Positions 10,886-63,952 of a stretch of 64,000 nucleotides of DNA are shown here, in pieces (within the stretch, counting starts at the first letter, position 1; each line of letters opens with the position of its first letter). The notes beneath the pieces were generated by a model. It was given only the letters and a program-made list of their open reading frames with translations, had not been told where the DNA came from and made no database searches. Both the position numbers and the translations under genes were made by a program. This DNA is from Anaerolineae bacterium (lineage in GTDB: Bacteria > Chloroflexota > Anaerolineae > Epilineales > JAHCIE01), in assembly GCA_039810085.1 (NCBI GenBank), contig JBDHWG010000002.1, positions 2,273-66,272 of the forward strand. The letters run 5' to 3'.

Positions 10886-10957
10886 GGTATCCTCGGTGGG
10901 TGGGGACAGCCCTGGCGCGGGTGCGCCGGGACTGTCCCTCACGTCTCAAAGCGGCGA

Positions 10958-12403
10958 TTACTGATGGTGCGTGTGGTTGAAGCCCTGGTGCGGGGCCGCC
11001 AGGTACGGGAAGTGCTCCATGAACGGCACGTCGTTGGCCGGGACGCTCTGGCTGAGCGCGCCGGCGTTCGGCACCGCCGTGGTGCCGGGGAACAGCGGCG
11101 TGCCAAGCAGAACGCCCGCCGCGACCTGGAGCTCGATGTCCACGATGTCGTCGCTCAAGCGGCGGCCATTGGGGAAGCCAGACAGATCGCCGGCGAGGAC
11201 GCCAAGGCGCTGACCCCATCGACCGTTGTCATAGCTGGCCGGCGGGATTTCCACGTTGAGACGCAGCATCTCCGACGGGCGGACGTTCGCCGGCTGGTTG
11301 AGGCCAGGAATGCCGGTCAGGAACACCGTGACGAGGTCGTTGCGCGGCGTCGCGGGCACCGTCGGGAACAAGCTCGGATAGAGCAAGGTCAGCAGCTTGG
11401 GCAGCTCGGGGTTGGTCACGTACTTCAGGAACTGGGCGTCGTTGGTCGGCTGGGAAGCATTGAAGCGGTCCTTATCCTGCAGAGCGATGACCACTTCGTT
11501 GACCAAGGGCATGCCCAGGCGCGACACCTGCTGGTAGGAGCGCGAGTATGGGTAGTAGCCGGGCTTGGCGGCAGCAGCATCCGCCTTCACCTCGTCCACA
11601 GCACTGAACGCGCCATAGGGGCTGAGTGGTTGACGGCTCGCCGTCGCCCACATGCCGATGACGGGATCCGTGCCACGCACTTTGTTGATGGGAACCTGGA
11701 TGGCGAGCGAGTGAACGTTGAAGCCCTTGAGTGTGTCGATGCCGGGGTTGCGCAGGGCGAGCAGGTCGAACACGCCCAGGTCCACCCAGAACGGGTCATC
11801 CGTCGGACCGGCGTAGACCTTGGTGCCGTCGGACAGGGTGTAGACCGCCTTCGAGAAGATGTCGTCGTTGTAGTTGGGGTCCGAGCGCGGGCCGATGTTG
11901 TACGGCGGCACGAGCAGGTCAGTGCCCAGGACCGTCGGGTTGGCGACGCGGCGGTAGCCGGACTGGATCCAGTCCTCGCGAATGACCGTCATGTACTGGC
12001 GCAGGTTGTAGTCGGCGTCGTTGACCGACGTGAGTGGGCCGGTATTGTACAGGAAGGTGTTGCCGTTCTGATAGCCAGTGCGGAACAGGAACTGGAACGT
12101 CACGTCCGGCTGGCCGTCGCCGTTGTTGTCGATGTTCATCTCGTAGAGGGCGTTGTCGGCGAAGCGATAGTAGTAGGGGCCACCCATCGGCTCCTCGAAC
12201 GGGTTCCAGCACGAGATGAGCGTCACAGTATCCGGAGCGTCGGGGCTGCGGAACATGTAGACGTCGGTCGTGTCGACGGCCGGGTCCTGGGAGATGAGGG
12301 GCGCTTCTCGGTGGCTCGAGGCTTGGCTGCCACCAGGGCCAAGCACGACCGACAGCGCCAGCCCCAGGGCAAGCAGCGCGGTGAGGACAATGATCTTACG
12401 CAT
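10958..12403 (-). CDS. DUF4331 domain-containing secreted protein
   Basis: Signal peptide, then SSHREAPLISQDPAVDTTDVYMFRSPD.., which I recognise as the conserved DUF4331 N-terminal signature. Start at ATG 12403 with AGAGAGG upstream. Confidence 0.8.
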   Translation of the reverse strand: MRKIIVLTALLALGLALSVVLGPGGSQASSHREAPLISQDPAVDTTDVYMFRSPDAPDTVTLISCWNPFEEPMGGPYYYRFADNALYEMNIDNNGDGQPDVTFQFLFRTGYQNGNTFLYNTGPLTSVNDADYNLRQYMTVIREDWIQSGYRRVANPTVLGTDLLVPPYNIGPRSDPNYNDDIFSKAVYTLSDGTKVYAGPTDDPFWVDLGVFDLLALRNPGIDTLKGFNVHSLAIQVPINKVRGTDPVIGMWATASRQPLSPYGAFSAVDEVKADAAAAKPGYYPYSRSYQQVSRLGMPLVNEVVIALQDKDRFNASQPTNDAQFLKYVTNPELPKLLTLLYPSLFPTVPATPRNDLVTVFLTGIPGLNQPANVRPSEMLRLNVEIPPASYDNGRWGQRLGVLAGDLSGFPNGRRLSDDIVDIELQVAAGVLLGTPLFPGTTAVPNAGALSQSVPANDVPFMEHFPYLAAPHQGFNHTHHQ

Positions 12404-12631
12404 GGTCAGTTTACCTCTCTTGGTGAGTGACACGGGCTGTTATGTGACTTGCGGATAGGACGGTTCGGGCAGCATTTCACGGTCAGCTAATGAACAAGCG
12501 CGCAAGCGTATCGGGCGAGCCAATCAGCCGGGGCCCTCGGCGATGTGCCCCATCAACGCCTGCTTCTCACAACCTGGACTTCGCCACACGCCGTTGAGCG
12601 GCGAAGTCTTCTGCGTGGTTGACGCACAACA

Positions 12632-15700: not shown

Positions 15701-16011
15701 CCGGGGCGCCATGTCAGGGTATCGCCCTCAGCCGCAACGGGGAAGACGGGCAGCGCCTTGCGCAACCGGGTGAGCACCGTGCTCAGACTGTTGCGCGCCT
15801 CCGTCTCGCTGCTATTCTCCCAGAGGAGCGCGCACAGGTGTGAGCGGGAGAATGGGTGGCCCGGCTGAACGGCGAGGTAGTAGAGCAGCGCATGCGCCTT
15901 GACGGAGGGCAGATTCACACGGTCCTGTCCCGCCTCGACGGCGGGCGGGCCTAGCAAGCGGAGAGTCAGAACAGCCACAGCAGCCCTTTCTGGTCGCCTG
16001 CTTTCACTCAA
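12703..16011 (-). CDS. SARP/AfsR-type transcriptional regulator: winged-helix DNA-binding + BTAD + AAA/NB-ARC (STAND) ATPase + TPR
   Basis: N-terminus LRLLGPPAVEAG..SVKAHALLYYLAV..LWENSSETEARNSLSTVLTRLRKAL. BTAD-like region (DPLQERFHRALMVALYQMGDRASALAQY). Walker A GEAGIGKS. Long TPR-like C-terminus. The start codon is uncertain (TTG at 16011 or a nearby GTG). Confidence 0.8.
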   Translation of the reverse strand: MSESRRPERAAVAVLTLRLLGPPAVEAGQDRVNLPSVKAHALLYYLAVQPGHPFSRSHLCALLWENSSETEARNSLSTVLTRLRKALPVFPVAAEGDTLTWRPGDAAWVDTDAFKSAGSTLADLCAAADLWRGTFLDGFEVRDSTGYDEWLRQERGEWEARYLDLLWRLAEQARGLREWTQARDAAQRALAVDPLQERFHRALMVALYQMGDRASALAQYRVCVETLDAQLGVAPDAATTRLFEEIRVGSLARVAAPPAPRIVTPPRLPRSPDLPLLERQAELDSLLAQAERAAQRGTTGAHANTPTGQLVVVEGEAGIGKSRLLAELVWQIAGRAEPPFTILHGHCYEAERSLPYHPIVDALTSILPTLDLASLPVPDVWLGEVARLVPDILDARPGLLTPRPDAVQDHRRLFEGVVRFLAALPAPVLFILDDLQWADAATMQLLAYLVRHLARHPILFVAALRIDDMDEASKTTLWHLEREGYLARVSLSRLSPAAMTTMIREIAGHADRVERLATWLHRETAGNPLFTVEILRSLMEAGTLLDQLTDSRLPAHPVHLTLPPSIVAVIQSRLARVSPAAREFLAAASVFRRAFEFDLARAVSGQSEDRALDALDELLRTHLLVESVSAGGEPLYDFSHDTVRQVVYRDLSQARCTTLHRRAVAVLGPPKDGWAAERTAYHAFLGRLWQEAATWSGLAAESAAGVFAFATATLLYQQALDALGHLPVDDDVRRQGVLIRLSLARVAFYIYPGRLNEWLAPAEADALALGDENLQAMVGLAKGGSLYIQGDFKAARPLLEGLLPLVERTGNSLLVARTMNILGRLMAFMGDIKPGLPILTEGAARLDMVGAHNDSLISQGMIGAERAYLGEFAEALATAERVWADSAKQADPAAVAAAANFLEAVYQMWGRWAEAEAWGRRAEKLAQQASNIVYERNVYLFLGLPLARQGDRAAGREALEKAIALGGECRSQVFMGRAHAWLGEVLLEAGDIDAARSAAQAGLAIAQACGARFDEALAHRIVGEALAAAGDGPRALAHLAQGMTICREHGFAPELARALAAAGRIAYAVGEAQTAVAYLTEAADLLRAMDMTWDLAHLTAVQ

Positions 16012-30839: not shown

Positions 30840-31409
30840 CTACTGCTGCGTCGGCAAGCCGGCCGTCTTCCAGGCTGCCCAGCCCCCCGTCAACGCATGG
30901 ACGTTCTTGTACCCCTTGTTGATCAAAATGTCTGCCTCACGGGCAGATTCTTGTTCGTTCGGTCAGGCACAATAGACGATAAGCGCCTTGTCCTGCGGCA
31001 GGCGGCTCAGATACTTATCCACGTCGGCGACTGGCACGCTGATCGCGCCCTTGACATGCCCTTGCGTGTACTCCTGAGCAGTGCGCGCGTCTACGAAGAG
31101 AACGTTCGGGTCGGTCATCTTCTGCTTAGCTTCATCGAGTGAGATACGCGGCACGTGCGCTAGCTGCGCGTTTGCCGCCGCAATCGCCGTGGGGTCGTAC
31201 TGCGGCGTGAGGACAATCTGCGGCGCTGCAGGGTTCTGAGCTGCTGGGTTCTGGGCCGCTGGATTCTGGGCGGGCGCGGCCGCTTGCGTCGTGGTACTGG
31301 TGGGTGAGACGGCTTTGCCGAGGACAAAGCCAAGCCCAAGCACCGCCAGGACGGCCACCACGCCAAGGATGCCGTATAAGACCCGGCGATCCATTCGAAT
31401 CGTGATCAT
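30840..31409 (-). CDS. Membrane-anchored rhodanese-like sulfurtransferase with an in-frame TGA at 30963..30965 (candidate Sec codon or nonsense mutation)
   Basis: The track ORF 30963..31409 ends ..QDKALIVYCA*. The same frame continues PNEQESAREADILINKGYKNVHALTGGWAAWKTAGLPTQQ to the TAG at 30840, completing the rhodanese fold. N-terminal TM segment and an AAQNP x3 linker. Confidence 0.6.
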
Positions 31410-35189: not shown

Positions 35190-35269
35190 GGACCACGAAG
35201 GCCACGAAAGAGCGCGAAAAACGCGAAAATCACTCGCTGGGCGACTCCTTTTCGCGCCTTTCGCGGTCC
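35190..35269. repeat. Family C palindromic repeat, intergenic between convergent genes
   Basis: GGACCACGAAGGCCACGAAAGAGCGCGAAAAACGCGAAAA ... TTTTCGCGCCTTTCGCGGTCC. Confidence 0.8.
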
Positions 35270-35318: not shown

Positions 35319-37463
35319 TCAACGCGAGCCGTTCTGCCCCTGCAACAGGTAGTCGTCCAAGACCAGGGCCTCGCGCGGCTGGAGTGTGACCGTTCGGTCC
35401 ACCAGCCGCCACGTCGTTGTTCCCCCCTCACCGCCGTCGAACCACACTTGCAGACGGTGCGCCCCCGGCGATAGGGGCCACTCCGCCAGAATGGCGGGCG
35501 CTTTGCCGGTGTACACGTCCGCCGGGACAAGCGGCTGCTCCAACAGCATGGCCCCATCCACCGCCACGCTTAACCGCGTCGGCCAGTTGGGCTGAACGCC
35601 ACCGGGCATCGTCGGCGCTGCGCCAAAGAAGGTTGCCGGGTTGGGCAGCACCACGGACAGCCGCGCTTCGTCCACCCCGAACGTCCGCATCGGAACTGCA
35701 CTCAGCGCGACGAGCACAGCAAACGTGGCGGCGACTAGCGCCAGGGCCACGCCGATGTTTCGCGGGGTCAGCCGAGGCGTCATGCGGCCTGGCAGCGTGA
35801 GCGGCACGTCGCCGCTGCCGACGTGGGCAGGCGGGGGCTTCAAAGCGTCGGCGAAGCGGTCGGGGGCCAGCCAGAACGTCGTGATCGGCGCGTTGGCGTA
35901 GGCGCGGCGCAGGCGCGGCACGCGCTGGCGACTGAGGCGTCCCTCCTCCCAAACGTTGCCCTCGCGTCGGCTGCAATCATCGGGGGGACAGCCGACGACA
36001 CGCACGTCCGCCGCGCCTAGCTCGAGTGTCTCGCTGACCAGGTTGGGCGACGCCGTGGCAACACACGGCAGGGCGATGACCTCGACCGTGCGCGGCCCAT
36101 TGACCGCCACGCCCACACCATCCGCGAGGTAGGCGTCCGCGCCGAAAAGGGCGTGGCGCTCGCAGGTATAGACAATCGTCACTGGAGTCGCCGGGGCGCG
36201 GCGGCGCGCCCGTTCGAGGCGCGTGCGCGCAGCGTTAGGGATGGCCTGGGGCGCAAGGACGCTCAGCGACACGGCCTGGAGATCGCACGAGCCGATGCAC
36301 ACCCCGCACGCGACGCACATGGCCGGGTTTTCGATGGCGATGTACTTGTGCGGCTTGCCGTCATGGCGCTCGACCATGCTGATGGCCTTATACGGGCAAT
36401 CCATGGCGCACTCGGTGCAGCCCGTACAGAGGTCTTTGTCAATGGCGATGGGGGGCGGCCCCTTGTGGCGGCGCGGCAGCCAGGGCAGAGCGACGGAGAC
36501 GGCCAGCAGCGCGCCCAGCGCCGCCCACAGCCACCACGCAGCGCCGTTGACTTCGAAGGGCAGGAAGAACAGGTAGAACGGGTCGATGCGCATCGGCGCA
36601 GGCAGCGCGCCAAAGTCGGCCTTGGGGAGCATGCCGACGGGGATGGCGATGGACAGGATGAGAACGAGGCCGAACACGCCCGCGACCCAGAGACGCGAGG
36701 GGAGAAACTTGGGCCGGCTGAGACGCACGATGTGCAGCCAGAACATCGCGCTGATGAGCACGAAGAGAAGGATGTGGAGCAGCAGGATAAGCCCGATGAC
36801 GATCCAGCCGCGATCCAGGCGCTCGGCGCTCAGAAGGTAGCCCAGGAAGCCCGGCCCCCACGGTGTCAGGGCATCCAGCCAGTGGGTGAAGCTGGCCGTA
36901 ATGAGCTGCGCGCGCTCGTCCCAGATGAGCCAGTAGCCGAGCACGCCGTCCACCCACAGCACGGCCATCATCACCACGCCCGTGACCCACGCCAGCCAGC
37001 GCGGGCCGCGAAAGCGGTCCATGAACAGCAGGCGGTAGCCGTGGAGCAGGCTCACGACCAGGGCGAAGATCGAGGCGTAGCGGTGCATCGCCCGAATGAC
37101 GTGGGCAAGGGGGTGGCTTTCGATGCGGGCAATGGCCGCAAACGTCGCTTCGAAGCCGAACTGCATGAAGAACGTCAGGTACAGGCCCGTCACCGCCACG
37201 ATGATCCAGAGCCACACGGCAATCGTCCCCGTGTGGTAGAAGGGGTTGAGCGTTTGCGCGCCGACGAGCCGGTTGACCGGCGTCTCGACGGCCAGAGCGA
37301 TGCGCTCCATGAGCCACAGCACGCGGTTACGCTGCGGCTTCCAGACCTGGGTCATAGGCTGAAGAATGTCACGGGCAGCGCCACTCGGCTCATCAGGAAG
37401 ACAATCTTTGTCCTGGTCTACGCCTTCCAAGAGGGTTGGCGGCTTGTCGCGTCGGAAGAACAC
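35319..37463 (-). CDS. Fusion protein: di-haem cytochrome b + 2x[4Fe-4S] ferredoxin + MvhD/FlpD-like domain + C-terminal TM and extracytoplasmic domain
   Basis: Two H-x13-H pairs in TM helices (MHRYASIFALVVSLLH and LHILLFVLISAMFWLH). CTGCTECAMDCP and CVACGVCIGSCD clusters. GAADVRVVGCPPDDCSRREGN resembles the MvhD/FlpD signature. GTG start with GAGGAC upstream. Confidence 0.75.
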   Translation of the reverse strand: MFFRRDKPPTLLEGVDQDKDCLPDEPSGAARDILQPMTQVWKPQRNRVLWLMERIALAVETPVNRLVGAQTLNPFYHTGTIAVWLWIIVAVTGLYLTFFMQFGFEATFAAIARIESHPLAHVIRAMHRYASIFALVVSLLHGYRLLFMDRFRGPRWLAWVTGVVMMAVLWVDGVLGYWLIWDERAQLITASFTHWLDALTPWGPGFLGYLLSAERLDRGWIVIGLILLLHILLFVLISAMFWLHIVRLSRPKFLPSRLWVAGVFGLVLILSIAIPVGMLPKADFGALPAPMRIDPFYLFFLPFEVNGAAWWLWAALGALLAVSVALPWLPRRHKGPPPIAIDKDLCTGCTECAMDCPYKAISMVERHDGKPHKYIAIENPAMCVACGVCIGSCDLQAVSLSVLAPQAIPNAARTRLERARRRAPATPVTIVYTCERHALFGADAYLADGVGVAVNGPRTVEVIALPCVATASPNLVSETLELGAADVRVVGCPPDDCSRREGNVWEEGRLSRQRVPRLRRAYANAPITTFWLAPDRFADALKPPPAHVGSGDVPLTLPGRMTPRLTPRNIGVALALVAATFAVLVALSAVPMRTFGVDEARLSVVLPNPATFFGAAPTMPGGVQPNWPTRLSVAVDGAMLLEQPLVPADVYTGKAPAILAEWPLSPGAHRLQVWFDGGEGGTTTWRLVDRTVTLQPREALVLDDYLLQGQNGSR

Positions 37464-37499
37464 GGGATGTCCTCGATTCTGATGTTCAATAGCTCGGGG

Positions 37500-37620
37500 G
37501 TCACTGCGAGGAGGACGGTAGGACGACGAAGCAGTCCCTCGGCCGGTGAGAGATTCGCTCGGCCTAGGCTAGACCGGCTGTCGCAAGGGCGCGAGATTGC
37601 TTCGCTATGCTCGCAATGAC
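37500..37620. repeat. MITE/REP-like palindrome, family B
   Basis: Homologous along its length to 4660..4780. It generates the spurious 'MLRYARNDG' ORF start in the track. Confidence 0.8.
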
Positions 37621-37660
37621 GGCTTCTCTATCCTTATAGATGCAGCATTACCCGTCATGG

Positions 37661-37697
37661 ATACATACGTCCACCGGGAGCCGCTGTGGCAACCCCC
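37661..37697 (-). terminator. Hairpin downstream of coxI (possible terminator or RNA-processing site)
   Basis: GTCCACCGGG ... CCCGGTGGAC, a 10-bp stem with no clear T-tract. Confidence 0.35.
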
Positions 37698-37734
37698 GGT
37701 GGACACGCGCACACATGGAAGCGGCGGGAACTTG

Positions 37735-39375
<1,641 letters not shown>

Positions 39376-39416: not shown

Positions 39417-39893
39417 TTATTCTACGGTGATCGTACCGAACATGTACTGGTGGCCCAGACCGCAGTACTCGGTACAGAGGTAGTGATACGTGCCGGGGGT
39501 ATTGAATGTGTGGGTCAATGTCGTGACCCGGCCCGGCAGCAACATCGCGTTGACGTTCGTATTCTCGACCAGGAAACCGTGCTGGACGTCCTGGCTGGTC
39601 ACAATGAAGGTGACTTGCGAACCAACCGGCACCTTCAACTCGTTGGGGGTGAAGACCCACGGCTTTGCGCCCGCGCGGATGACGGCCTCGTACTTGCCCG
39701 GCGCAAGCTCGCGCAGCCCCGGCTCAGCAAATGTGCCTGTCGTCGCCACCGTGTTCGGGTTCACGAGCTGCGCGGAGTACGGCAGCTGGTAGCCCATGGC
39801 GGCGGATGAGATGGTGATGGTGGCGAAGAAGATAGCGACGACGGCCACGCTGATGGCGATCCACCACTTTTCGTATGTGTCAACGTGAATCAT
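39417..39893 (-). CDS. cbaB: Cytochrome c oxidase subunit II (ba3-type, CuA cupredoxin)
   Basis: CuA site CTEYCGLGHQYM with a single N-terminal TM segment. Start at ATG 39893 (MIHVDTYEKWW..). Confidence 0.85.
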   Translation of the reverse strand: MIHVDTYEKWWIAISVAVVAIFFATITISSAAMGYQLPYSAQLVNPNTVATTGTFAEPGLRELAPGKYEAVIRAGAKPWVFTPNELKVPVGSQVTFIVTSQDVQHGFLVENTNVNAMLLPGRVTTLTHTFNTPGTYHYLCTEYCGLGHQYMFGTITVE

Positions 39894-40030
39894 CCCGTCA
39901 CCCCTCTCCCCAGCAGAATCAGGTACACCCAGCTCCACAGGATAATGAGGGTGAGGAGGAAGAGCAGGGTGATGGTGATAGCGCCGATGGGATGCTGTGG
40001 TTGGTCTTTGTTTGGTAGTTTCTTGTCCAT
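39890..40030 (-). CDS. Small single-TM protein resembling ba3 oxidase subunit IIa (CbaD-like), not in the ORF track
   Basis: GGAGGAAACACT then ATG: MDKKLPNKDQPQHPIGAITITLLFLLTLIILWSWVYLILLGRGVTG (46 aa). Its stop overlaps the coxII ATG as ATGA. Confidence 0.55.
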   Translation of the reverse strand: MDKKLPNKDQPQHPIGAITITLLFLLTLIILWSWVYLILLGRGVTG

Positions 40031-40058: not shown

Positions 40059-40703
40059 TCACCGGGTGAGCAGATAGGCCAGGTCGTCGGCCATGTCTTC
40101 CACCGAGATACCGAATGGGAACAGGAGGCGCAGGTAGCCCTGGCGGTCCACGACCATGACCGTCGCGGTGTGGTCCACCAGGTAGCCTAACGCCGACGTC
40201 ACCGGATGCGCGTTGTAGTAGACGCCATAGTACGTCGCCGTCTCGGCGATCTTCTCAGGTGTCCCCGTGAGTCCGATAAAGCTGGGGTCGTAGCGCCCGA
40301 CGTACTCCCCCATCACGTCGGGTGTGTCGCGCTGCGGATCCACCGACACCATGATGACCTGCACATCCCCAGCGTCGTCCCCTAGCGCCTCCCGCGCCTT
40401 GTTGATGACGGACAGGGTGACCGGACACACGTCGGGGCAGGTGGTGTAGCCGAAGAACAGCATGACCAGCTTGCCGCGAAAGTCCTGCAAGGAGACAGGC
40501 TTGCCGTGCTGGTCGGTCAGCGTGAAGTTGGGCGCCGGCTGGGGCGATTGCAGAATCATGCCGTGGTAGGCGTGGGGACGCAGCATGGCGCCGACCTTCC
40601 AGCCAGCGACGCCTACCAGGGTCAGGACAACGATACCCACCACCAGAAGGATGGGCCAGCGGACGGGCAGCGTCCGCCGATGCGTCATAGGAACATCGGT
40701 CAT
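40059..40703 (-). CDS. SCO1/SenC family copper chaperone / thiol-disulfide oxidoreductase
   Basis: CPDVC motif in FFGYTTCPDVCPVTL. N-terminal TM segment. The ATG at 40703 overlaps the upstream stop as ATGA. Confidence 0.85.
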   Translation of the reverse strand: MTDVPMTHRRTLPVRWPILLVVGIVVLTLVGVAGWKVGAMLRPHAYHGMILQSPQPAPNFTLTDQHGKPVSLQDFRGKLVMLFFGYTTCPDVCPVTLSVINKAREALGDDAGDVQVIMVSVDPQRDTPDVMGEYVGRYDPSFIGLTGTPEKIAETATYYGVYYNAHPVTSALGYLVDHTATVMVVDRQGYLRLLFPFGISVEDMADDLAYLLTR

Positions 40704-41419
40704 TGGTAGCACCTGAACACGTGCGCGGCCTCATACGCCACCCGCGCGACGCCCGTACTATTGCGGGCCTCGTCGGCAATGGATTGCAGGTCGCGCATCA
40801 CAAGAGCCTGGTCGAGCTGCGATGTGCGGTAGTCGGCGCGGATAATGCCCCAGCCGTCCACCAGGACAAAGTGAGGCTCGAAGCGAATGGCCGTCGGGTC
40901 ACCTGCCTTTTTATCATAGTACACGTTGAAGCCGCCGCCCACTGCGTACTTGGTCTTGAGCGGGTCGCCGGTCAGCCAGTCCCACGGGATCGCCGGGTCG
41001 CCCGGATACGTGGCAGCCATGCGCGCCAGCGCCTCGGGCGTGTCATGCTCCGGGTCAACGCTGATCGTCACCAGCGCCACATCGATCCCCTGCGGCTTGT
41101 TGGCAGCGAGGCGCTCGCGGAACGCCGCGAGCTGGTCGGCAGTCTGCGGGCAGCCTGCCCCACAGCCGGTGTAACTAAAGCTGTACAGCGTCACCTTGCC
41201 GCGGTAGTCCTCGCTGGTGCGCACAACACCGGCCTGGTTGGTGAACGCGAAGCCGGGCGCCAGGCTGATGCGGGGCATCACCCGCAACGGCTTGAAGGTA
41301 GCGAAGGCCAGCACACCGACGACGAGGAGCGCCCCCAGGACGTAGAGCGCCCGCAGCGGCCAGACAAACCAGCGGCGGCTGGCGGCGCGTGGGGCGGGAT
41401 CGAGGACGTGCGCGCTCAT
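40700..41419 (-). CDS. SCO1/SenC family protein (second paralogue)
   Basis: YSFSYTGCGAGCPQT motif. The ATG at 41419 overlaps the upstream stop as ATGA. Confidence 0.8.
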   Translation of the reverse strand: MSAHVLDPAPRAASRRWFVWPLRALYVLGALLVVGVLAFATFKPLRVMPRISLAPGFAFTNQAGVVRTSEDYRGKVTLYSFSYTGCGAGCPQTADQLAAFRERLAANKPQGIDVALVTISVDPEHDTPEALARMAATYPGDPAIPWDWLTGDPLKTKYAVGGGFNVYYDKKAGDPTAIRFEPHFVLVDGWGIIRADYRTSQLDQALVMRDLQSIADEARNSTGVARVAYEAAHVFRCYQ

Positions 41420-41787
41420 GGGCGGCTCGCCGTCCCCTCGGACGGCCCCTGCCATGACCCACGCAGCATGCCGAGCAGTTCGGTCGCATCCATGTCGGGC
41501 ACCGGACGCAGATCATCCACGACGGCTCGATTCTCGTCGAGGGTCAGGTGGATGATGCGGAGACTGCGCGACGGGTTGCCGAGCAACGAGTAGACATTCG
41601 TCGGGCGGCTCCCGATAGCGGCCTGATCGACGATCAGCACCTCCGGCTGTGTCGCGGCGATGAGGTCCTCGGCCTCGTTCCACGAGTCGGCCGAGCCGAC
41701 GACGAAGACAGACGGCTCCTGGCCGAGAAGGTGGGCCAACCCGTCTCGGAACAGCCCTCGGCCGACAAGAAGCACGCGCGTACCCAT
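41416..41787 (-). CDS. Stand-alone receiver-like (pseudo-receiver) domain protein
   Basis: MGTRVLLVGRGLFRDGLAHLL..PEVLIVDQ.. resembles the NarL-family REC N-terminus. The acidic DD pair is replaced by GR, and there is no output domain. Confidence 0.55.
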   Translation of the reverse strand: MGTRVLLVGRGLFRDGLAHLLGQEPSVFVVGSADSWNEAEDLIAATQPEVLIVDQAAIGSRPTNVYSLLGNPSRSLRIIHLTLDENRAVVDDLRPVPDMDATELLGMLRGSWQGPSEGTASRP

Positions 41788-41900: not shown

Positions 41901-42569
41901 TTAATCCAGGTGAGGCGGAGCGCCTCTGGCAAGGCTATGGCGGGCGGCCCAGGCAGCCGCCTCGGACCGGCTGCGGAGGTGCAGCTTGTCCAGGATGTTG
42001 CGCAGGTGCGCCTTGACCGTGTGCGGGGAGAGGGAGAGGGCGGCGCCGATTTCCTTGTTCGTCATGCCCTGGGCGATCAAGCGCAGGACGGCGCGCTCGC
42101 GCGCCGTCAGCTCCTCTCCGCCGGTCTCGCGTCGCTCGCTGTCTGTCGAGAGCGCGGCAAACTCATCCAGCAGCTTGGCCGCCATGCTCGGCGCGATGAT
42201 CGCCTCACCCGCGTTGACGCGGCGGATGGCATCCATCAGCTCGTCGCTGCCCATGCTCTTGAGGAGATAGCCGCGCGCGCCAGCGCGAACGGCGGCGAAC
42301 AGGTGCTCGGCGTTCTCGGACACGGTCAGCATGAGGATGTGCGTCTCCGGCTGCGCGAGGTGAATCTGGCGCGCGGCCTCGATGCCATCGACACGCGCCA
42401 TGTTGATGTCCAGCAGCGCCACATCCGGCCGTAGCGCCGCCGCGCGGGCAATCGCATCTGCCCCGTCGGATACGCTCGCGACGACGCTCATTTCTGCGGT
42501 GTCGTTCAGAACGCGCGCCAGACCTTCGCGGAACAGGCGGTGGTCGTCGGCGATCAGGATGCGGATCAT
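41901..42569 (-). CDS. NarL/LuxR-family two-component response regulator
   Basis: REC domain (MIRILIADDHRLFREG..DVALLDINM) plus a LuxR HTH (LTARERAVLRLIAQGMTNKEIGAALSLSPHTVKAH). Confidence 0.9.
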   Translation of the reverse strand: MIRILIADDHRLFREGLARVLNDTAEMSVVASVSDGADAIARAAALRPDVALLDINMARVDGIEAARQIHLAQPETHILMLTVSENAEHLFAAVRAGARGYLLKSMGSDELMDAIRRVNAGEAIIAPSMAAKLLDEFAALSTDSERRETGGEELTARERAVLRLIAQGMTNKEIGAALSLSPHTVKAHLRNILDKLHLRSRSEAAAWAARHSLARGAPPHLD

Positions 42570-44434
42570 GCGGCGCCTCGTTGGGGAATGGTGACGATGA
42601 TGCGGGTGCCCTGCCCGGTTCCGGTCACGATGCTAAAGCGGCCACCGAGACTCTGCGCCCGCTCGCGCATCGTCGCCATGCCGTGGCGCCGGTAGTCGCC
42701 GTTCGCCGCAAGGGCCTGGGGCAAACCGTCGCCGTTGTCGGTGACGGTCAGCTCCAGATAGTCGCCCTGCGCCACCAGGCGGACCTCGACGTGCCGGGCG
42801 TGGGCGTGCTTGCGCACGTTGGTGAGCGCCTCCTGGGCAATGCGGAGGAGTTGCAGCGTGACCTCCGGGTCTACCACCAGCCCTGGCGGGTCAGCGACGA
42901 AAGCCGTCTCGATGGCGGTCTGCTGGCGGAAGTGGGTCACGTAGTCCGCCAGCCGCGCCGCCACCTGCTCTGGGTGCTCGGCAGCCAGGCGCAGCCCATC
43001 GATGGCTTCCCGCGCATCGACGTAGGCGGCCCGAATGGACTCGCGCATCTCGCCCATCTCAAGAATCGCGTCCTCGTCGCGGCCAACCTTGACCAGCTTC
43101 TCCAGGCGCTCCATTTGCAAGCTAAGATAGGCCAGGGTTTGCGCCAGGCCATCGTGAATCTCACGCGACAGGCGATAGCGCTCCTCGAAGACCGCCATCT
43201 GTCGCACCTGTTCGTAGAGCTGCGCGTTGCGGACGGCCAGGGCAATCTGGTTTGCTGCCGTCGTCAGCAGATCGGTGTGGCGGGCGGACAGCGTCCGGGG
43301 CCGCGTTGCGCCCAGGAACAGCGCGCCGAACACTAAGCCCTCGGTCACCAGCGGCGCAGCCGCAGCCGACCGTAGGTCCCCTGTTGGCTCCGGCAGCGTC
43401 GCGACGATCACCGGGGCGCCTGTCAGCGTTTTCTGCGCCATCTCCAGCGCTAGCTCGAAGCGGGCGTCGGTCATGCCGCTCCCCAGCCCACGGGAGGCGC
43501 GGCACGCCCAGGCATGGGACGCGGCATCGTACAGGAACAAGGCCGCCGCGTCCACATCCCAACCGGCGGCTGTGATTTGCAAGACCTGGCTCGCAAAGTG
43601 GTCCAGGTTCGCCTCGCTCGCCGCCGCCTGATCCAGCGCGTGCAGCGTCGTCATCTGGCGCGCTCGCAGCCGTCGGCTGTCCAGCATCCCGGCGATTTCC
43701 CCTTGCACAACATTGAGTAAGCGCACCTGGGACTCCGGCGGACCATCCGCCGAGGGGAAGTAGGCCAGGATCGCCCCGACGCGCTCTTTCTCGCGCACGA
43801 TGGGCATGCACACCGCCGACGCGATACCTTCCGCTTCCGCCAATGTCTCAAGCCCGACAAACAGCGGGCAGCCGCTCCGCGTCTGGGCACGCAGCGTCGT
43901 GCATTCACGGCAACGCGTCGTGTCGATGCCCGCGTCCATCTGGGCGCGCAACGCGTGGACATACTGCTCGCTCAGGCCCCACGCCACGTCGAGCTGCACG
44001 CGGTTGGCCGCGTCGTCGAACGTCACGATGGACGATGCCTGCGCCCCAATCAACTCGATAGGCGCCTGGGCAGCCAGCTCCAGCACCGTCTCCTCACTGT
44101 CGGCCGCCGCGATCTGCTCCCCAATGCGGTTGAGCGACAGCAGCCGCGCGTGGTTCGTCTCAAGCTCGGCGTAAGCAACTTTCAGGTGCTCCTCGGCCTG
44201 ACTGTGCCGCTCCAGGGCGTTCGCCAGCAAACTCAGCCCGATCCATGCAGTAATGCTGCCCACAATGCCAAGGATAAGGACATCGAGTGTGTCGCTCAAG
44301 GAGAACGCGCTTGGCCCTAGCCAGGAGACCAGCACGGAGCGCTCTAGCGCGGCGACGGCAAACACGCCCAGTGGGAGGAGCCAGCGTAGGCGGCGAAGCT
44401 GGATATGCAGCGGGACATGGGAGAAAAACGGCAT
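42566..44434 (-). CDS. GAF-domain sensor histidine kinase (HisKA_3 / NarX-like)
   Basis: Two N-terminal TM segments and GAF-like regions. H-box REIHDGLAQTL. HATPase motifs (NVRKHAHA.., DNGDG.., GMATMRERA). Its stop overlaps the RR start as ATGA. Confidence 0.85.
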   Translation of the reverse strand: MPFFSHVPLHIQLRRLRWLLPLGVFAVAALERSVLVSWLGPSAFSLSDTLDVLILGIVGSITAWIGLSLLANALERHSQAEEHLKVAYAELETNHARLLSLNRIGEQIAAADSEETVLELAAQAPIELIGAQASSIVTFDDAANRVQLDVAWGLSEQYVHALRAQMDAGIDTTRCRECTTLRAQTRSGCPLFVGLETLAEAEGIASAVCMPIVREKERVGAILAYFPSADGPPESQVRLLNVVQGEIAGMLDSRRLRARQMTTLHALDQAAASEANLDHFASQVLQITAAGWDVDAAALFLYDAASHAWACRASRGLGSGMTDARFELALEMAQKTLTGAPVIVATLPEPTGDLRSAAAAPLVTEGLVFGALFLGATRPRTLSARHTDLLTTAANQIALAVRNAQLYEQVRQMAVFEERYRLSREIHDGLAQTLAYLSLQMERLEKLVKVGRDEDAILEMGEMRESIRAAYVDAREAIDGLRLAAEHPEQVAARLADYVTHFRQQTAIETAFVADPPGLVVDPEVTLQLLRIAQEALTNVRKHAHARHVEVRLVAQGDYLELTVTDNGDGLPQALAANGDYRRHGMATMRERAQSLGGRFSIVTGTGQGTRIIVTIPQRGAA

Positions 44435-44558
44435 GGATAGGCCATCCCGGCCGACGCAAGCTGATGTTGTGACTCACAGTGCGGACCGCACCTTTTCTTA
44501 TTGTACCCTATCCCGCAAACGTTTGCAAGGCTGCAATATGTCGATAAGCGTCAGCGGG

Positions 44559-44587
44559 TTGCAATGTGACAGCGTCCGTTTTATACT
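44559..44587 (+). promoter_or_regulatory. Candidate sigma70-type promoter of the SulP gene
   Basis: TTGCAA - 17 nt - TATACT, about 90 nt upstream of the ATG at 44676. Confidence 0.45.
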
Positions 44588-44675
44588 GTGCTTCCGCGAC
44601 ATCGTCTTTGCGCGTCCCCATGCGGTTGCCGTCTTCCACACTGCAATAAAATCAGCGCACCTGGGAGAGTCGCCG

Positions 44676-46784
44676 ATGCTCACCAACATCCGAAGCAGTG
44701 CCGCCTACCTTATGCGCCCAGCCGAGATCTTGCGCGCCGAGCCTCTGCTCCGCCTGCGCTTCGATCTGATTGCCGGGCTGACGGTCGCCATCGTCGCCCT
44801 CCCCCAGGCCATCGCCTACGGGGTCGCCGCCGGGGCAACACCGGCGATGGGCCTGTATGCAGCCATTGTCGCGCCCATCGTCGCGGGTCTGTGGGGGTCC
44901 TCCAACCAGACTTTTACGTCGCCGACCAACGTCACAGCTCTCCTCGTCTTCTCGAGCCTATCCGCTATCGCCACACCAGGGACGCCCAACTTCCTCGTCG
45001 CGGCGGGGCTGACGGCGGCTCTAGCCGGCGCAATCCAGTTGATTCTAGGACTGGCTCGGCTAGGCATGTTGGTCAATTTCATCTCGGACTCGCTCCTGGT
45101 GGGCTTTGCAGCCGGCGCTGGCATCCTCCTGGCGATCAATGAGTCGCGCCATCTGCTCGGTTTGAGCTTCAGCAGCGCGAGCGTGGTCGAGACGATACAA
45201 CGCGAGCTGCTGAACCTTCCCCAGATAAGCGTGCCTACCCTGGCTATCGGGCTGGGAACCATGGCGCTTATGGTGGTCATCCGCAAAGTACGACCACGCT
45301 GGCCCGCGACGGTGATCTCTCTCTCCAGCGTGTGCCTTGTCGTATTCGTTCTCGGCTTGAACAACGCCGGCGTGAAGGTGATCGGCCCGTTTCCACAGGG
45401 CTTGCCCCCCTTCCAGCCGGTTCCCCTCTTTGACTTGAACCTTGTCGCCGAGCTGGCGCCCGGCGCGCTGGCAATCGCCGCCGTCGGCCTGATCCAAACC
45501 ATGGCTATCGCCCGCTCGATGGCTATCGCCACGGACCAGCAGATCGACAACAACCAGGAATTCGTCGGCCAGGGGCTAGGCAACATCGCGTGCGGCTTCT
45601 TCACTGGCATCCCGGTCTGCGGCTCAAACTCGTGCTCGAGCATCAACAACCAGGCAGGCGCGCGGTCCGCGCTGTCATCCGTCTTCGCCGGTGTGTTCAT
45701 CCTTGTCGCCATGCTGCTCCTGTCACCCGTTGGCGCGTACATGCCGCGAGCCGCTCTGGCGGGCGTGCTCATCATCATTGGTATCGGCATGGTGGATCGC
45801 GCACAGATCGCCCACATCTGGCGCAGCAGCCGTGGCGACGCGGCCATCATGCTCGTGACGTTTGCAGGCACGCTGTTCCTCCGCATCGACTTCGCCGTCC
45901 TGGCGGGCATCATGATGTCCCTGGCATACTACATCCTACAGACCAGCGCGCCTAGGGTGAGAGCCGTTGTGCCGGACAATGACTTCCGCCATTTCATTCA
46001 CCAGCCGCACAAGCCGCAGTGCCCGCAACTCGGTATCCTGGACATCCTGGGCGACCTGTACTTCGGCGCCGCCAGCAATGTGGAGAACGCCATCCGCGCC
46101 CAGCGCCGCGCCCACCCGGCACAGCGCTTCCTCCTCCTGCGCATGCACAGCGTCCACCGATGCGACATCACCGGCATCCGCGTACTCCAGAGCGTCGTGC
46201 GCTACTACCGACAGGAAGGTGGCGACGTATTCATGGTGCGAGTCCATACGCCGGTGCTGCATTTCATGCGCTCCTCTGGGTTTTTTGCCTACCTGGGCGC
46301 TGACCATTTCCTGTCCGAGGACACCGCCATCGAGTACCTGTTCTACCATGTCCTGGACCCGGCGGTGTGCATCTATGAGAGCGACGTCCGGGTGTTCCGC
46401 GAGTGCCAGAACCTGCCCCGCTACGTCCCCACCGTCGAGATTACGCTGCCCAAGGCCACAGCGAGCGATGTCCCCAAAGTCGCGCCGCGCGAGCTGTGGC
46501 AGCAATTGCACAGCGGCGCACCGCCCATCGTCATCGACGTGCGCGAACCGCGCGAGTTCCAGCAGGGTCACATTCCGCAGGCGCAGCTCCTGTCCCTCCC
46601 TATGCTCGTCGCCGAGCAGCCGCCCCTGCCCCACGACAAGCCCATCGTCTTCGTCTGCCGCATTGGCCGCCGCAGCGCGCGAGCCGCGCAGCTCTACCGA
46701 CAGAACGGATATACGAACGCCGCCGTGCTGGACGGCGGCATGCAGGCTTGGGAAGCCGCCCGGCTGCTCCAGGCTGTGGCTTAG
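44676..46784 (+). CDS. SulP-family anion transporter fused to STAS and C-terminal rhodanese domains
   Basis: Trimmed to ATG 44676 (MLTNIRSSAAY..). SulP signature region (LIAGLTVAIVALPQAIAYG). STAS-like middle region. C-terminal rhodanese with the CRIGRRS active-site loop. Confidence 0.85.
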   Translation: MLTNIRSSAAYLMRPAEILRAEPLLRLRFDLIAGLTVAIVALPQAIAYGVAAGATPAMGLYAAIVAPIVAGLWGSSNQTFTSPTNVTALLVFSSLSAIATPGTPNFLVAAGLTAALAGAIQLILGLARLGMLVNFISDSLLVGFAAGAGILLAINESRHLLGLSFSSASVVETIQRELLNLPQISVPTLAIGLGTMALMVVIRKVRPRWPATVISLSSVCLVVFVLGLNNAGVKVIGPFPQGLPPFQPVPLFDLNLVAELAPGALAIAAVGLIQTMAIARSMAIATDQQIDNNQEFVGQGLGNIACGFFTGIPVCGSNSCSSINNQAGARSALSSVFAGVFILVAMLLLSPVGAYMPRAALAGVLIIIGIGMVDRAQIAHIWRSSRGDAAIMLVTFAGTLFLRIDFAVLAGIMMSLAYYILQTSAPRVRAVVPDNDFRHFIHQPHKPQCPQLGILDILGDLYFGAASNVENAIRAQRRAHPAQRFLLLRMHSVHRCDITGIRVLQSVVRYYRQEGGDVFMVRVHTPVLHFMRSSGFFAYLGADHFLSEDTAIEYLFYHVLDPAVCIYESDVRVFRECQNLPRYVPTVEITLPKATASDVPKVAPRELWQQLHSGAPPIVIDVREPREFQQGHIPQAQLLSLPMLVAEQPPLPHDKPIVFVCRIGRRSARAAQLYRQNGYTNAAVLDGGMQAWEAARLLQAVA

Positions 46785-47771: not shown

Positions 47772-47949
47772 GCCACATTACAGTTTTCGACGCATTGCAG
47801 CATTTTCTGGCACTCCCAACACGGGCGATGTATAATGGGGGCAGCGCTCGAACACGCACGCCGACAGCATTTGAATAGCCTGCGGCGGGGCGCCGTGGGT
47901 GCGTTGGCGGGCAACATCCAACCCAGGCATTGCAAGGAGGCATACCAAA

Positions 47950-48360
47950 ATGAAAATACGAGTGCTATTTATTCTATCGGCGCTTTTGATCGGCGCTGTT
48001 GTCCTCGCAGCATGTGGCGGTGGTGGCGGCGGCGCTGCGTCCTCGTCCGGCGGGCAGCAGGCGGCGGCCAAGTCGGCGGGTGATTCGGCGCGCGGCAAGA
48101 CCGTATTCACCCAGACCTGCGCCTCGTGCCACGGCCCGACCGGCCAGGGCATCCAGGGTCTCGGCAAGGACTTCACTAAGAGCGAGTTCGTCAAGAGCCA
48201 GACCGACCAGCAGCTCGTCGATTTCGTCAAGAAGGGCCGCCCCGCGTCTGACCCGGCGAACACGACCAAGGTGGACATGCCCCCGAAGGGCGGCAACAAC
48301 TCGCTGACCGACAAGGACATCCTCGATGTCGTCGCCTACGTCCGCACGCTTCAGAAGTAA
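47950..48360 (+). CDS. Lipoprotein class I c-type cytochrome
   Basis: Start at ATG 47950 after AAGGAGG. Lipobox LAAC. Haem motif CASCHG with a distal Met region (KVDMPPKG). Confidence 0.8.
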   Translation: MKIRVLFILSALLIGAVVLAACGGGGGGAASSSGGQQAAAKSAGDSARGKTVFTQTCASCHGPTGQGIQGLGKDFTKSEFVKSQTDQQLVDFVKKGRPASDPANTTKVDMPPKGGNNSLTDKDILDVVAYVRTLQK

Positions 48361-48414: not shown

Positions 48415-49176
48415 TTAGATGTCTTCCCCTTCTCGGCGCCTATGCGCCTCGGCACTTCCTACCCATTCCTTCGGCCAGGCAGATAGCCCGCGTGCTGGAC
48501 GCGCAGGAGCTTGCGCCTGCCCGGTGAGCCGCTGGCGCGTCTGCACGATCCAATGGCGGATCGGCGGCACGCGCACCAGCAGCAGCGCCGTCAGAATCAC
48601 GGCGTAGCGCAGCGGGTCACCATACACCCCCGCCTTGCCCTCCCACACAAAGTGGAGCACGGCCAGCACGCCCGCCGCGTACACCAGCCAGTGCAGCCGA
48701 ATCCAGTTGCGCTTGAGCCGCCGCTGCCATCCTTTCGTTGAAGTGATAGCGAGCGCCGTCAGAATGAGCAACGCCCCCAGCCCCGCCACGATGTACGGCT
48801 TGTTGAGCAGCGCGTCTTGCAGGGCCATTTGCAGGTTAAAGGCGTAGTCCAGCCCGATGAAGTTCAGGAAGTGGAGCAGGGCATAGAAGAAGGCGTACAG
48901 GCCCAGCGCGCGGCGGACGGTCACCGGCTTGCGGTAGCCGAAGACGATGTAGACCGGCGTCGCTGCCAGGCTCGCACCCAGCAGGATGATCGCCGCTCGC
49001 CCGGTGAGGTCGTTGATGGTCTGGATCGGGTCCACGCCCAGGTCATGGTGGGTGTAGCGCCACACCAGCAAGGCCAGCGGGTACAGGCCCGCCAGGTGCG
49101 CGAGCAGCCACAGCCACCTGTCCCGAACGACGTCGAGCCGGGACGGTTGCGGGTGGGCGACGCGAGCAGGATGCAT
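48415..49176 (-). CDS. msrQ: Protein-methionine-sulfoxide reductase haem-binding membrane subunit (YedZ-like)
   Basis: Ferric-reductase-like TM domain with conserved His residues. Its start overlaps the msrP stop by 1 nt (TAATG). Confidence 0.8.
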   Translation of the reverse strand: MHPARVAHPQPSRLDVVRDRWLWLLAHLAGLYPLALLVWRYTHHDLGVDPIQTINDLTGRAAIILLGASLAATPVYIVFGYRKPVTVRRALGLYAFFYALLHFLNFIGLDYAFNLQMALQDALLNKPYIVAGLGALLILTALAITSTKGWQRRLKRNWIRLHWLVYAAGVLAVLHFVWEGKAGVYGDPLRYAVILTALLLVRVPPIRHWIVQTRQRLTGQAQAPARPARGLSAWPKEWVGSAEAHRRREGEDI

Positions 49177-50171
49177 TAGAAGTTGGCCTTCAGGTCCATG
49201 CCCTCGTAGAGCGACGCAACCTGGCTGCCGTAGCCGTTGAACATGAGCGTCGAGCGCCGCCCCAGTTCGCCGATGCGCCGCTCGGTCGCCTGAGACCAGC
49301 GCGGGTGGTCCACCTGCGGGTTGACGTTGGCGTAGAAGCCGTACTCGTCTGATGCTGCGGTCGACCAGGCTGTCGCAGGCATCGTGTCCGTTAGCTCAAT
49401 CTTGGCGATGGACTTAGCGCTCTTGAAGCCGTACTTCCACGGCACGACCAATCGGATGGGCGCGCCGTCCTGGTTAGGCAGCGGCTTGCCATACATGCCC
49501 GTGGCGAGGATCGTCAGCGGGTGCATCGCTTCGTCGAGGCGCAGGCCCTCAGTGTACGGCCACGGGAGAATACTCGCGTGCTGCATGGGCATCTGCTCTG
49601 GCCGATAGACCGTAACAAACTTGACGAACTTTGCCTGGGACGTCGGCTCGACCATCTTGAGCAGGCTTGCCAGTGGGAAGCCGACCCAGGGAACCACGAA
49701 CGACCAACCCTCGACGCAGCGCAGGCGGTAGACGCGCTCCTCGTGGGGGAATGTGGCGTAGATATCCTCCATCGAGAACGAGCGCGGCTTGCCCACCATC
49801 CCGCTGACCTCGACCGTCCACGGCAGCGGCTGGAAGCCCTGCGCCCGGTCGCCTACGTCCTCCTTATTGAGAGAGAACTCGTAGAAGTTGTTGTAGTTCG
49901 TGACCTGGTCGTAGGGGTTGACGACCGCGCCCAGCTCGTCCGTCTTGGCGCTGACGAACGGGTCGGCGTGGGCCAGCTCAGCGGGCAGCTTCGCAGACAC
50001 GGGCGGCGCGGCCGGCGACGCCGCTGCCTTCGGCTGCGGTGTGCTCCCAAGCGGCGCGCCACACGCCGCCAGCAGGAACGCGCCCGCCGTCAGCACCGCG
50101 CCCTTCATGAACTGACGCCGATTGATGTACAGAAATTCGGGTGTAATCTCGTCGCGTCCGATGTCACTCAT
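49176..50171 (-). CDS. msrP: Molybdopterin-dependent protein-methionine-sulfoxide reductase catalytic subunit (YedY-like)
   Basis: Tat-type signal [17 protein letters not shown]. Oxidoreductase molybdopterin-binding core ([10 protein letters not shown]). Confidence 0.85.
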
Positions 50172-63903: not shown

Positions 63904-63952
63904 AGCGGTCGTAGAACGCTCTTGGAAGTTGCTCCTTAGCCTGGCTGGACAC

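Follow-up and report, generated by a model that had tools for sequence, protein, structure and literature searches.

The 64-kb window considered here (64,000 nucleotides of contig JBDHWG010000002.1 from an Anaerolineae bacterium of the Chloroflexota) carries on its reverse strand, at 35319-37463, a gene whose 714-residue product fuses a cytochrome b, two [4Fe-4S] cluster motifs, an MvhD/FlpD-like domain, a further transmembrane (TM) helix and a β-sandwich. The open reading frame (ORF) is uninterrupted and begins with GTG, a start supported by an N-terminus that aligns to homologues with its motif LxGxDxxxDC. Genes run into the fusion on the same strand in the order GAF histidine kinase, LuxR-type response regulator, SCO1, SCO1, COX2, COX1, spacer and fusion. 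The protein is a member of a widespread, uncharacterised family encoded beside ba3-type O2 reductases or eNOR-type nitric oxide (NO) reductases in several phyla, and the reading best supported by its gene context is a redox partnership with the adjacent oxidase.

The bc1/b6-type cytochrome b core (36480-37259, reverse strand like all parts of the fusion; residues 69-328) has six TM helices and belongs to PF00033/PF13631, with Pfam Cytochrome_B (PF00033) covering residues 69-248 at 41.6 bits against a gathering cut-off of 27.2. The top matches in a sequence search of the PDB are cytochromes b6 (1q90_B at E 7.7e-15). Among Pfam and NCBIfam matches the cytochrome families are all of b, b6 or bc1 type, and none is NarI-type even at E<=1. 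NCBIfam ranks the C-terminal ferredoxin and MvhD part of HdrA2 first (E 1.2e-18), followed by weaker matches to cytochrome b6, ExtP and SoxC. Two haem-ligand pairs are present, H127-x13-H141 and H230-x13-H244, with H127 and H230 belonging to an outer, bL-like haem and H141 and H244 to an inner, bH-like haem. The cd-loop reads GYWLIW at residues 176-181, extended to GYWLIWDERAQ at 176-186, which hhalign sets opposite the GYLLPWDQ of a canonical Chloroflexota b6 (probability 97.8%). After this loop the WGATV/YWAVK helix of canonical cytochromes b and b6 is replaced. The ef-loop carries I-D294-P-F-Y at the position expected for a PEWY-type Qo motif.

An AlphaFold 2 (AF2) model of the fusion built with 26 homologues has a mean predicted local distance difference test (pLDDT) score of 66.8, with 80-90 in the membrane core and 80-93 in the tail. 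Foldseek aligns 287-354 columns of this model to full-length cytochrome b of bc1 and bcc complexes, and the cytochrome b core therefore takes in helices E and F beyond the four helices of the b6 unit. Comparison of helices E-F with subunit IV (SUIV) by hhalign gave no significant alignment, either between our alignment of 79 Chloroflexota relatives (A1, ~40% shared identity) and one SUIV-like protein or between the 79-sequence profile and a 19-sequence SUIV profile, and a phmmer search of the PDB with residues 215-335 found no tie to the C-terminal half of cytochrome b. As these sequence alignments fail, the equivalence of the ef-loop to a Qo motif rests on its position, on the Foldseek coverage and on the cross-phylum alignment described below.

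The dicluster ferredoxin domain (36264-36449; residues 339-400) begins ~12 residues past the sixth TM helix and is therefore placed on the cytoplasmic face. It contains the motifs C346xxCxxCxxxCP (346, 349, 352, 356) and C383xxCxxCxxxCD (383, 386, 389, 393), and Fer4_7 and Fer4 both match above cut-off (Fer4_7 at residues 346-394, 33.1 bits, gathering cut-off 27). The MvhD/FlpD-like domain follows (35844-36182; residues 428-540; Cys 434, 467, 492 and 497), with FlpD (PF02662) matching residues 430-511 at 36.8 bits against a gathering cut-off of 22.3 and the signature stretch LGAADVRVVGCPPDDCSRREGN at residues 482-503. When aligned to MvhD of 5odc (5odc_D), C434, C492 and C497 fall on MvhD cysteines, and C467 lies inside the aligned 'vmCsgr' motif, off by one position in the printed alignment. 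The domain would thus provide a putative [2Fe-2S] relay site. The CCG domain (PF02754) has no match in the fusion and no CCG motif occurs in its sequence.

Hydropathy reveals seven hydrophobic segments, with short K/R-rich loops on the inner side, and the N-terminus and FeS region (329-568, 240 residues) are therefore predicted to be cytoplasmic and the tail (590-714, 125 residues) extracytoplasmic. The seventh TM helix (35694-35765; residues ~567-590), which would return the chain to the outer face, is identified from a hydropathy peak at 572-590, the preceding K/R-rich RMTPRLTPRN and an AF2 helix at 567-588. Beyond it lies the predicted extracytoplasmic β-sandwich (35349-35672; residues ~598-705; AF2 domain model, pLDDT 82.4). 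Foldseek on the isolated domain returns generic Ig/FnIII/CBM-like β-sandwich matches, all weak (best E 0.018). Across relatives the domain has no conserved metal or haem ligands (Cys, His, Met), its single invariant column being a Gly, and PCuAC-like, cupredoxin-like and Rieske-like readings of the tail were rejected on the ground that their ligand residues are not conserved. At one related locus (L084) the β-sandwich is encoded as a separate 167-aa ORF (hhalign probability 90%).

An earlier note on this DNA had listed a cytochrome b with two H-x13-H pairs and GYxLxW, two CxxCxxCxxxC(P/D) ferredoxin clusters, an MvhD/FlpD signature and a further TM helix with an outer β-rich domain. Each of these is present (the tail modelled at pLDDT 82), the stretch GCPPDDCSRREGN that it quoted does occur in the protein, and the module order and predicted topology are borne out. 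Its view of the cytochrome b as HdrE/QmoC-like must be abandoned, since PF00033, the PDB cytochromes b6 and the Foldseek match to bc1 cytochrome b all assign it to the bc1/b6 family.

The oxidase beside the fusion is, by the features of its predicted subunits, a genuine B-family (ba3-type) O2 reductase. This assignment is made because COX1 (37735-39375, reverse strand) aligns over its whole length with subunit I of T. thermophilus ba3 (E 1e-140 to 1e-144) and contains GHPLVY at ~220-225, which fits the GHPxVY pattern of the cross-linked Tyr, and HH at 270, while COX2 (39417-39938, reverse strand) is a short CuA subunit with one TM helix and the CuA motif H...CTEYCGLGHQYM. Upstream on the same strand are two SCO1/SenC copper chaperone genes (40059-40712 and 40700-41455), the LuxR-type response regulator (41901-42569) and the GAF histidine kinase (42566-44434). 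The SCO1 pair is upstream in most related loci too, and the regulator/kinase pair in L002, L003, L055, L058, L062, L065 and L073. The spacer between COX1 and the fusion (37464-37734, reverse strand; 271 nt), where most relatives have a class I cytochrome c gene, was searched for such a gene or its remnant and yielded no CxxCH ORF and no tblastn match. No terminator-like site lies inside it, and a 27-nt motif that it contains is single copy in the window. A terminator-like hairpin ~80 nt past the fusion stop codon (35223-35237, reverse strand), identified by consensus match only, is a possible operon end, and a convergent glycosyltransferase gene lies downstream of the fusion. Neither a Rieske motif or gene nor a canonical cytochrome b occurs in the 64-kb window; no large ORF of the alternative complex III (ACIII) type is found among its ORFs of >=380 aa, and no Mvh [NiFe] hydrogenase or HdrABC among those scanned. 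The position at the end of a ba3 oxidase cluster, and the lack of Rieske, bc1 and ACIII genes in the window, had been noted before and both hold, the latter for ACIII within the size range just given. A single c-type cytochrome was detected in the window, a class I cytochrome c whose gene stands alone at 47899-48360 on the forward strand, ~10 kb from the spacer; it is a candidate periplasmic partner of the fusion. This gene adjoins an MsrPQ-like pair on the reverse strand (48415-50171), the first encoding a ferric-reductase-like membrane protein with haem b (48415-49176), the second a molybdopterin oxidoreductase (49176-50171).

Linkage to the oxidase is conserved far beyond the window. In 67 of the 68 Chloroflexota loci that hold a COX1 orthologue, the fusion is preceded on its own strand by SCO1-SCO1-COX2-(CtaB)-COX1; up to 22 kb was examined per locus, and in loci without COX1 the upstream sequence is mostly missing. 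Among distant members of the family (27-32% identity), six of the seven sampled lie in operons composed of a small ORF, COX2 (CuA), COX1, (CtaB), SCO1 and the fusion. SAR324 contributes one of these six, and the exception to the linkage is one Nitrospinota locus. In the distant operons and in one Anaerolineales locus, subunit I carries GH(S/A/P)xQQIN rather than GHPxVY, and this Gln-for-Tyr change is the eNOR signature (PMC8756737, PMC11214002). The fusion family tracks the B-family/eNOR branch of CuA-containing haem-copper enzymes.

The family is also large. A word-indexed search with the fusion protein gave 736 matches, with the same domain set in all of the best 120. Those of the 120 with a stated organism come from Chloroflexota metagenome-assembled genomes; most of the 120 are unnamed, and others are called 'hydrogenase iron-sulfur subunit', the label routinely given to fusion relatives by the Prokaryotic Genome Annotation Pipeline (PGAP), 'cytochrome b N-terminal domain-containing protein' or 'ferredoxin'. 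With each GTDB species represented by one genome in a scan, at least 521 species genomes contained relatives, the best 80 of them all Chloroflexota (Anaerolineae, Ardenticatenaceae, Promineifilaceae, Caldilineae and Thermoflexales). A HMMER pass, exhaustive over 1.84 billion cluster representatives, found 349 clusters at 50% identity with E<=1e-30 against the full-length query, and sampled members among the listed clusters carry cytochrome b, 4Fe-4S and MvhD domains. Members at 27-33% identity occur in SAR324, Nitrospinota, Spirochaetota and Thermodesulfobacteriota. The SAR324 homologue aligns to residues 57-714 of the fusion, last TM helix and β-sandwich included (E 1.7e-71), and reads VDWFY at the IDPFY position.

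The earlier note had taken this architecture to be novel, a claim that has to be withdrawn, as it was described in 2014 and a cytochrome b-FeS protein of an eNOR operon in a 2026 preprint. Kao & Hunte reported that in Magnetospirillum magneticum and Turneriella parva a cytochrome b is joined to 4Fe-4S and MvhD domains, named the branch 'PDWF-FeS', recorded no Rieske gene in the gene cluster, and noted a cytochrome b-FeS-FAD-NADH fusion in Alicycliphilus (PMC4122944). The window protein shares with PDWF-FeS the bc-type cytochrome b, 4Fe-4S and MvhD modules, the lack of a clustered Rieske gene and the Asp at position 2 of the Qo motif. It differs in reading I-D-P-F-Y where the published description gives PDWF, and in having an O2-reducing ba3 oxidase instead of eNOR as partner; its seventh TM helix and β-sandwich are not described there. 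Magnetospirillum has eNOR (PMC11214002), which fits the haem-copper linkage of the family. A Chloroflexi ORF with a cytochrome c domain, b6, a DMSOR-beta-like domain and FlpD appears without comment as a table entry in PMC8756737. In the 2026 preprint two cytochrome b-FeS proteins are encoded in an eNOR operon of Ferrigenium straubiae, one with cytochrome b and [Fe-S] domains (gene 2878407323) and the other a cytochrome b-FeS-FAD-NADH protein (2878407319); they were detected in the proteome, and the authors speculate on a quinol:NAD+ supercomplex (10.64898/2026.01.22.701106). These proteins resemble the window protein in fusing a bc1-like cytochrome b to FeS domains within a CuA-type haem-copper operon with CtaB and SCO1, and differ in their proteobacterial host, in the eNOR partner and in the flavin/NADH module borne by one of them. 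New here are the family-wide link to B-family enzymes and eNOR, the link to cytochrome c through adjacent genes and fusion, and the NAD(P)H-flavoprotein neighbours. The family is common (at least 521 species genomes) and uncharacterised.

Conservation was counted over the 79 sequences of A1. All 16 cofactor ligands (4 His, 12 Cys) are invariant (79/79), as are R124, R144, G176, D182, R184 and D294, and Y177 and W178 of the cd-loop are kept in 78/79. R144 sits in an HxxR motif, which in canonical cytochrome b binds a haem propionate. Position 295 is Pro in 67 sequences, Leu in nine and Ser or Phe in three, so that the Trp of PDWF is not kept there. The Chloroflexota ef-loop takes the form D-P-(I/L/F)-(F/Y), and of PDWF retains the Asp and the aromatic residue alone. 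Two elements absent from the window protein occur in subsets of these relatives, a His-rich cytoplasmic N-terminal insert ('DDHEHDVTW') in 22/79 and an extracytoplasmic C-terminal CxnC motif in 25/79, and these are possible metal or disulfide sites.

The genes between COX1 and the fusion point to a c-type cytochrome as the link between them. One or two class I cytochrome c genes (CxxCH) occupy this position in about 43 of the 65 loci with COX1 in view. In 7 of the 79 proteins a PF00034 cytochrome c domain is fused past the β-sandwich, at the extracytoplasmic C-terminus. A whole Rieske cluster, consisting of a cytochrome c, a GltD-like FAD/FeS protein, b6, SUIV, Rieske protein and tri-haem cytochrome c, lies between COX1 and the fusion in 13 further loci, with five more in which COX1 is out of view. 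Where a Rieske gene adjoins the fusion, a separate canonical b6/SUIV pair comes with it; in ~49 related loci no Rieske gene is adjacent. Nothing intervenes only in the window clade (window, L002 and L003) and in one other locus. Judged from gene content, the spacer of the window clade has lost the class I cytochrome c gene kept by nearly all Chloroflexota relatives.

Flavoprotein genes are a second recurrent neighbour. A GltD-like FAD/FeS gene is present in 17 loci, the gene immediately downstream of the fusion is of the Pyr_redox_2 type in seven, and in L087 a NuoF-like gene overlaps two tandem fusions. The GltD-like FAD/NAD(P)/FeS protein of 672 aa is encoded with Rieske/b6/SUIV and tri-haem cytochrome c between COX1 and the fusion in L010, L011, L018, L019, L026, L038, L053, L063, L066, L075, L076 and L078, a set whose composition recalls the anammox Rieske/cytochrome b complexes proposed to make NAD(P)H. 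In L087 (1069-12991) the two tandem fusions, of 704 and 706 aa, flank and overlap the NuoF-like NADH/FMN/4Fe-4S gene; the eNOR-type operon there also contains a second COX1-like gene, CtaB and SCO1, and the opposite strand encodes a canonical Rieske/cytochrome b/multihaem c complex. Neighbours of another kind are found in about 5-6 of 80 loci, where HdrB/HdrC-like and [NiFe]-hydrogenase clusters lie downstream of the fusion, as in L001 (12752-19810), where an HdrCBA-MvhDGA [NiFe]-hydrogenase cluster with HycI follows directly on the same strand.

Redox partnership of the fusion with the adjacent oxidase is the best-supported reading, to which we assign a probability of about 0.7, because the linkage is conserved across phyla and because of the cytochrome c fusions. 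The earlier suggestion that the protein may feed the oxidase is thereby strengthened (67/68 Chloroflexota loci, 6/7 distant members, cytochrome c fusion in 7/79). Its description as a quinol-linked electron-transfer module survives as a quinone- or oxidase-linked electron module, shorn of the notion that this module is Hdr/Qmo-like, rare or unprecedented. A more specific form of the redox partnership, in which the fusion acts as a dedicated redox partner or electron-input module of the ba3 oxidase through a cytoplasmic FeS wire, the b haems, cytochrome c and CuA, has in our judgement a little under an even chance. The protein would then be a single-polypeptide transmembrane electron conduit, with its cytoplasmic clusters tethered to the membrane at both ends. 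Electrons would enter at the MvhD-type [2Fe-2S] site from a cytoplasmic reductant, which may be an NAD(P)H-linked flavoprotein or a ferredoxin-like donor, and pass through the two [4Fe-4S] clusters. They would then cross the membrane by way of the inner and then the outer haem b of the bc1-type cytochrome b. At the outer face, which would present a remodelled Qo-like pocket, the β-sandwich may hold or dock a c-type cytochrome that in turn reduces CuA, with electrons passing onward to O2. Menaquinol at the outer pocket could be a second or alternative input. What the analysis shows is the domains and ligands, the predicted topology, the synteny with CuA-type haem-copper enzymes in several phyla, the cytochrome c fusions and the flavoprotein neighbours; that the proteins physically form a complex, which way electrons flow, what the donor is and whether quinol is used are matters of inference. 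Outward flow is favoured because an inward branch from menaquinol (MKH2, -74 mV) to NAD+ or ferredoxin against the membrane potential would be left unpaid by the cytochrome c branch. By our own reasoning from standard potentials, outward flow from a low-potential donor would be downhill, and it also matches the NOX-like logic of the flavin-bearing relatives.

Several observations weigh against this proposal. The window has neither a cytoplasmic partner gene nor a cytochrome c gene adjoining the fusion, and the FeS region is weakly modelled by AF2 (pLDDT 35-60). The outer cd and ef loops are conserved as strongly as the haem ligands, and the invariant D294 at the carboxylate position of PEWY/PDWF argues for quinone chemistry over a plain wire. 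Little energy would be saved if the protein simply passed electrons from NAD(P)H to cytochrome c. Beyond proteomic detection, no functional study of any family member was found in the literature. A wider proposal can be put forward tentatively, namely that the fusion is the core of an undescribed bc1-type cytochrome b respiratory complex, a quinone-independent or dual-input NAD(P)H/ferredoxin:cytochrome c oxidoreductase that forms a supercomplex with B-family oxidases and eNOR. If true, microaerophilic Chloroflexota and aerobic denitrifiers would have a short path, of low coupling, that takes electrons from a cytoplasmic reductant on to O2 or NO.

The strength of outer-loop conservation bears on an alternative in which the fusion is a Rieske-less substitute for complex III. 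Menaquinol would be oxidised at the Qo-like outer pocket, with one electron passing to cytochrome c and ba3 and the other from outer to inner haem and along the FeS wire to a cytoplasmic acceptor or the quinone pool. The bc1-type fold that includes helices E and F, the invariance of D294 and of the cd-loop, and the VDWFY of SAR324, which matches the 'PDWF' Qo motif assigned to cytochrome b-FeS fusions (PMC4122944), are all in keeping with such a mechanism, as are the ~43 loci that pair cytochrome c and fusion with no Rieske gene in view and a window that lacks both a Rieske protein and a canonical cytochrome b. However, no Qo-type site is known to work without a Rieske cluster as first acceptor, the second electron has no known acceptor, and the helix E-F region has no detectable sequence homology to subunit IV or the cytochrome b C-terminal half. 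The protein would also be redundant where a full Rieske/b6/SUIV/cytochrome c complex lies directly upstream (13 loci, and five with COX1 out of view). We consider this alternative unlikely, while granting it appreciable weight.

The constant company of assembly genes (SCO1 in one or two copies and CtaB) raises a different prospect, that the fusion is an oxidase biogenesis factor, serving as a transmembrane reductase for Cu(II) or thiols at the outer face during CuA assembly with the SCO1 proteins, or in haem A formation. L085 adds CtaA and a PCuAC/LpqE-like gene, and 25/79 relatives end in CxnC at the outer face. Set against these, the β-sandwich has no conserved Cys, His or Met, the window protein lacks CxnC, and seven cofactors would be elaborate for a chaperone. 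As the cytochrome c fusions and flavoprotein neighbours indicate bulk electron transfer, a role in biogenesis is improbable.

An energy-converting reverse or bifurcating module, in which the oxidase or NO reductase would pull quinol oxidation and so push electrons along the FeS wire onto NAD(P)+ or ferredoxin, faces the energetic objection. By standard potentials, passing one electron from MKH2 to cytochrome c (~+0.32 V) does not pay for sending the other to NAD+ (~-0.25 V) against the membrane potential, and the energetics are worse with ubiquinol. Quinol:NAD+ oxidoreduction has been proposed for the cytochrome b-FeS-FAD-NADH protein of an eNOR operon (10.64898/2026.01.22.701106), and it is this reaction, favoured by the Ferrigenium authors, that we judge thermodynamically unlikely. 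Anammox Rieske/cytochrome b complexes are proposed as NAD(P)H makers (PMC12954380), and the GltD-like subunit adjoins the Rieske/cytochrome b complex in 17 Chloroflexota loci. The carriers are nonetheless mostly heterotrophic Chloroflexota with no obvious need for reverse electron flow, and no flavoprotein adjoins the fusion in the window, so we regard this reading as highly improbable.

A quinol:disulfide oxidoreductase of Hdr/Qmo/Dsr type, which is close to the thiol/disulfide role once considered for this protein, is suggested by the resemblance of the FeS and MvhD module to the C-terminal part of HdrA2 and by the HdrCBA-MvhDGA genes downstream of the fusion in L001 and similar clusters in about 5-6 related loci, but can be dismissed as barely credible given a bc1-type rather than NarI/HdrE-type cytochrome b, no CCG, HdrD-type or other catalytic domain, no Hdr genes in the window and most loci, and a haem-copper enzyme as the universal neighbour.

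Known systems offer partial parallels to the redox partnership that we prefer. Di-haem quinol:fumarate reductases (QFR), succinate:menaquinone reductases and NarGHI (NarI plus NarH) likewise combine an outer quinone site, two stacked b haems and a cytoplasmic FeS chain, which in succinate:quinone reductases (SQR) and QFR also has three clusters with [2Fe-2S] at the end. The folds of SdhC/FrdC and NarI are unrelated to the bc1-type fold of the fusion, and the subunits of those enzymes are separate. They also have a known catalytic flavo- or molybdo-subunit, and no such subunit is encoded alongside the window gene. In Sulfolobus, SoxC of the SoxABCD quinol oxidase is similarly a bc1-type cytochrome b, encoded in the operon of a haem-copper oxidase with no Rieske protein of its own, and carries A-type haems. 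Its NCBIfam match to the fusion is weak (NF041076, E 8e-9; 34.9 bits against a family cut-off of 740), and it has neither the FeS/MvhD module nor the C-terminal TM helix and β-sandwich. The MvhD subunit and the ferredoxin-MvhD module of HdrA2 share with the fusion the dicluster ferredoxin plus four-Cys MvhD fold as an electron relay. In the fusion this module sits between TM helices of a respiratory cytochrome b and, in contrast to Mvh/Hdr, neither the protein nor the window has a hydrogenase, HdrB/C or FAD domain.

In many uncultured lineages it is poorly defined how B-family oxidases and eNOR-type NO reductases are supplied with electrons, and genome surveys usually score just 'bc complex' or 'ACIII'. 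A protein with seven cofactors, conserved and linked to such enzymes in several phyla, would be a missing component of their respiratory chains. The aerobic and denitrifying potential of Chloroflexota, SAR324 and Nitrospinota genomes would then be read differently, as the gene is at present annotated 'hydrogenase iron-sulfur subunit'; what was an annotation oddity becomes a testable hypothesis about that missing component. The family is also a natural experiment, in which a bc1-type cytochrome b has no Rieske protein beside it and contains its own FeS exit or entry on the cytoplasmic side, and as such bears on ideas that cytochrome b originated as a membrane anchor for dehydrogenases.

Elsewhere in the window, SulP sulfate permease, STAS and rhodanese domains are joined in an 843-aa protein (44253-46784, forward strand) whose gene lies divergently and directly upstream of the sensor kinase, and a second rhodanese ORF is at 30963-31409 on the reverse strand. 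A cluster at 7662-12433 on the reverse strand encodes a DUF4331 protein (491 aa), a TPR protein (473 aa) and a NicO/DsbD_2-like membrane protein (620 aa), with a BTAD/AAA/TPR regulator of 1102 aa (12703-16011) upstream of it. G+C content is 0.54 in 62001-64000, compared with ~0.65 over the rest of the window.

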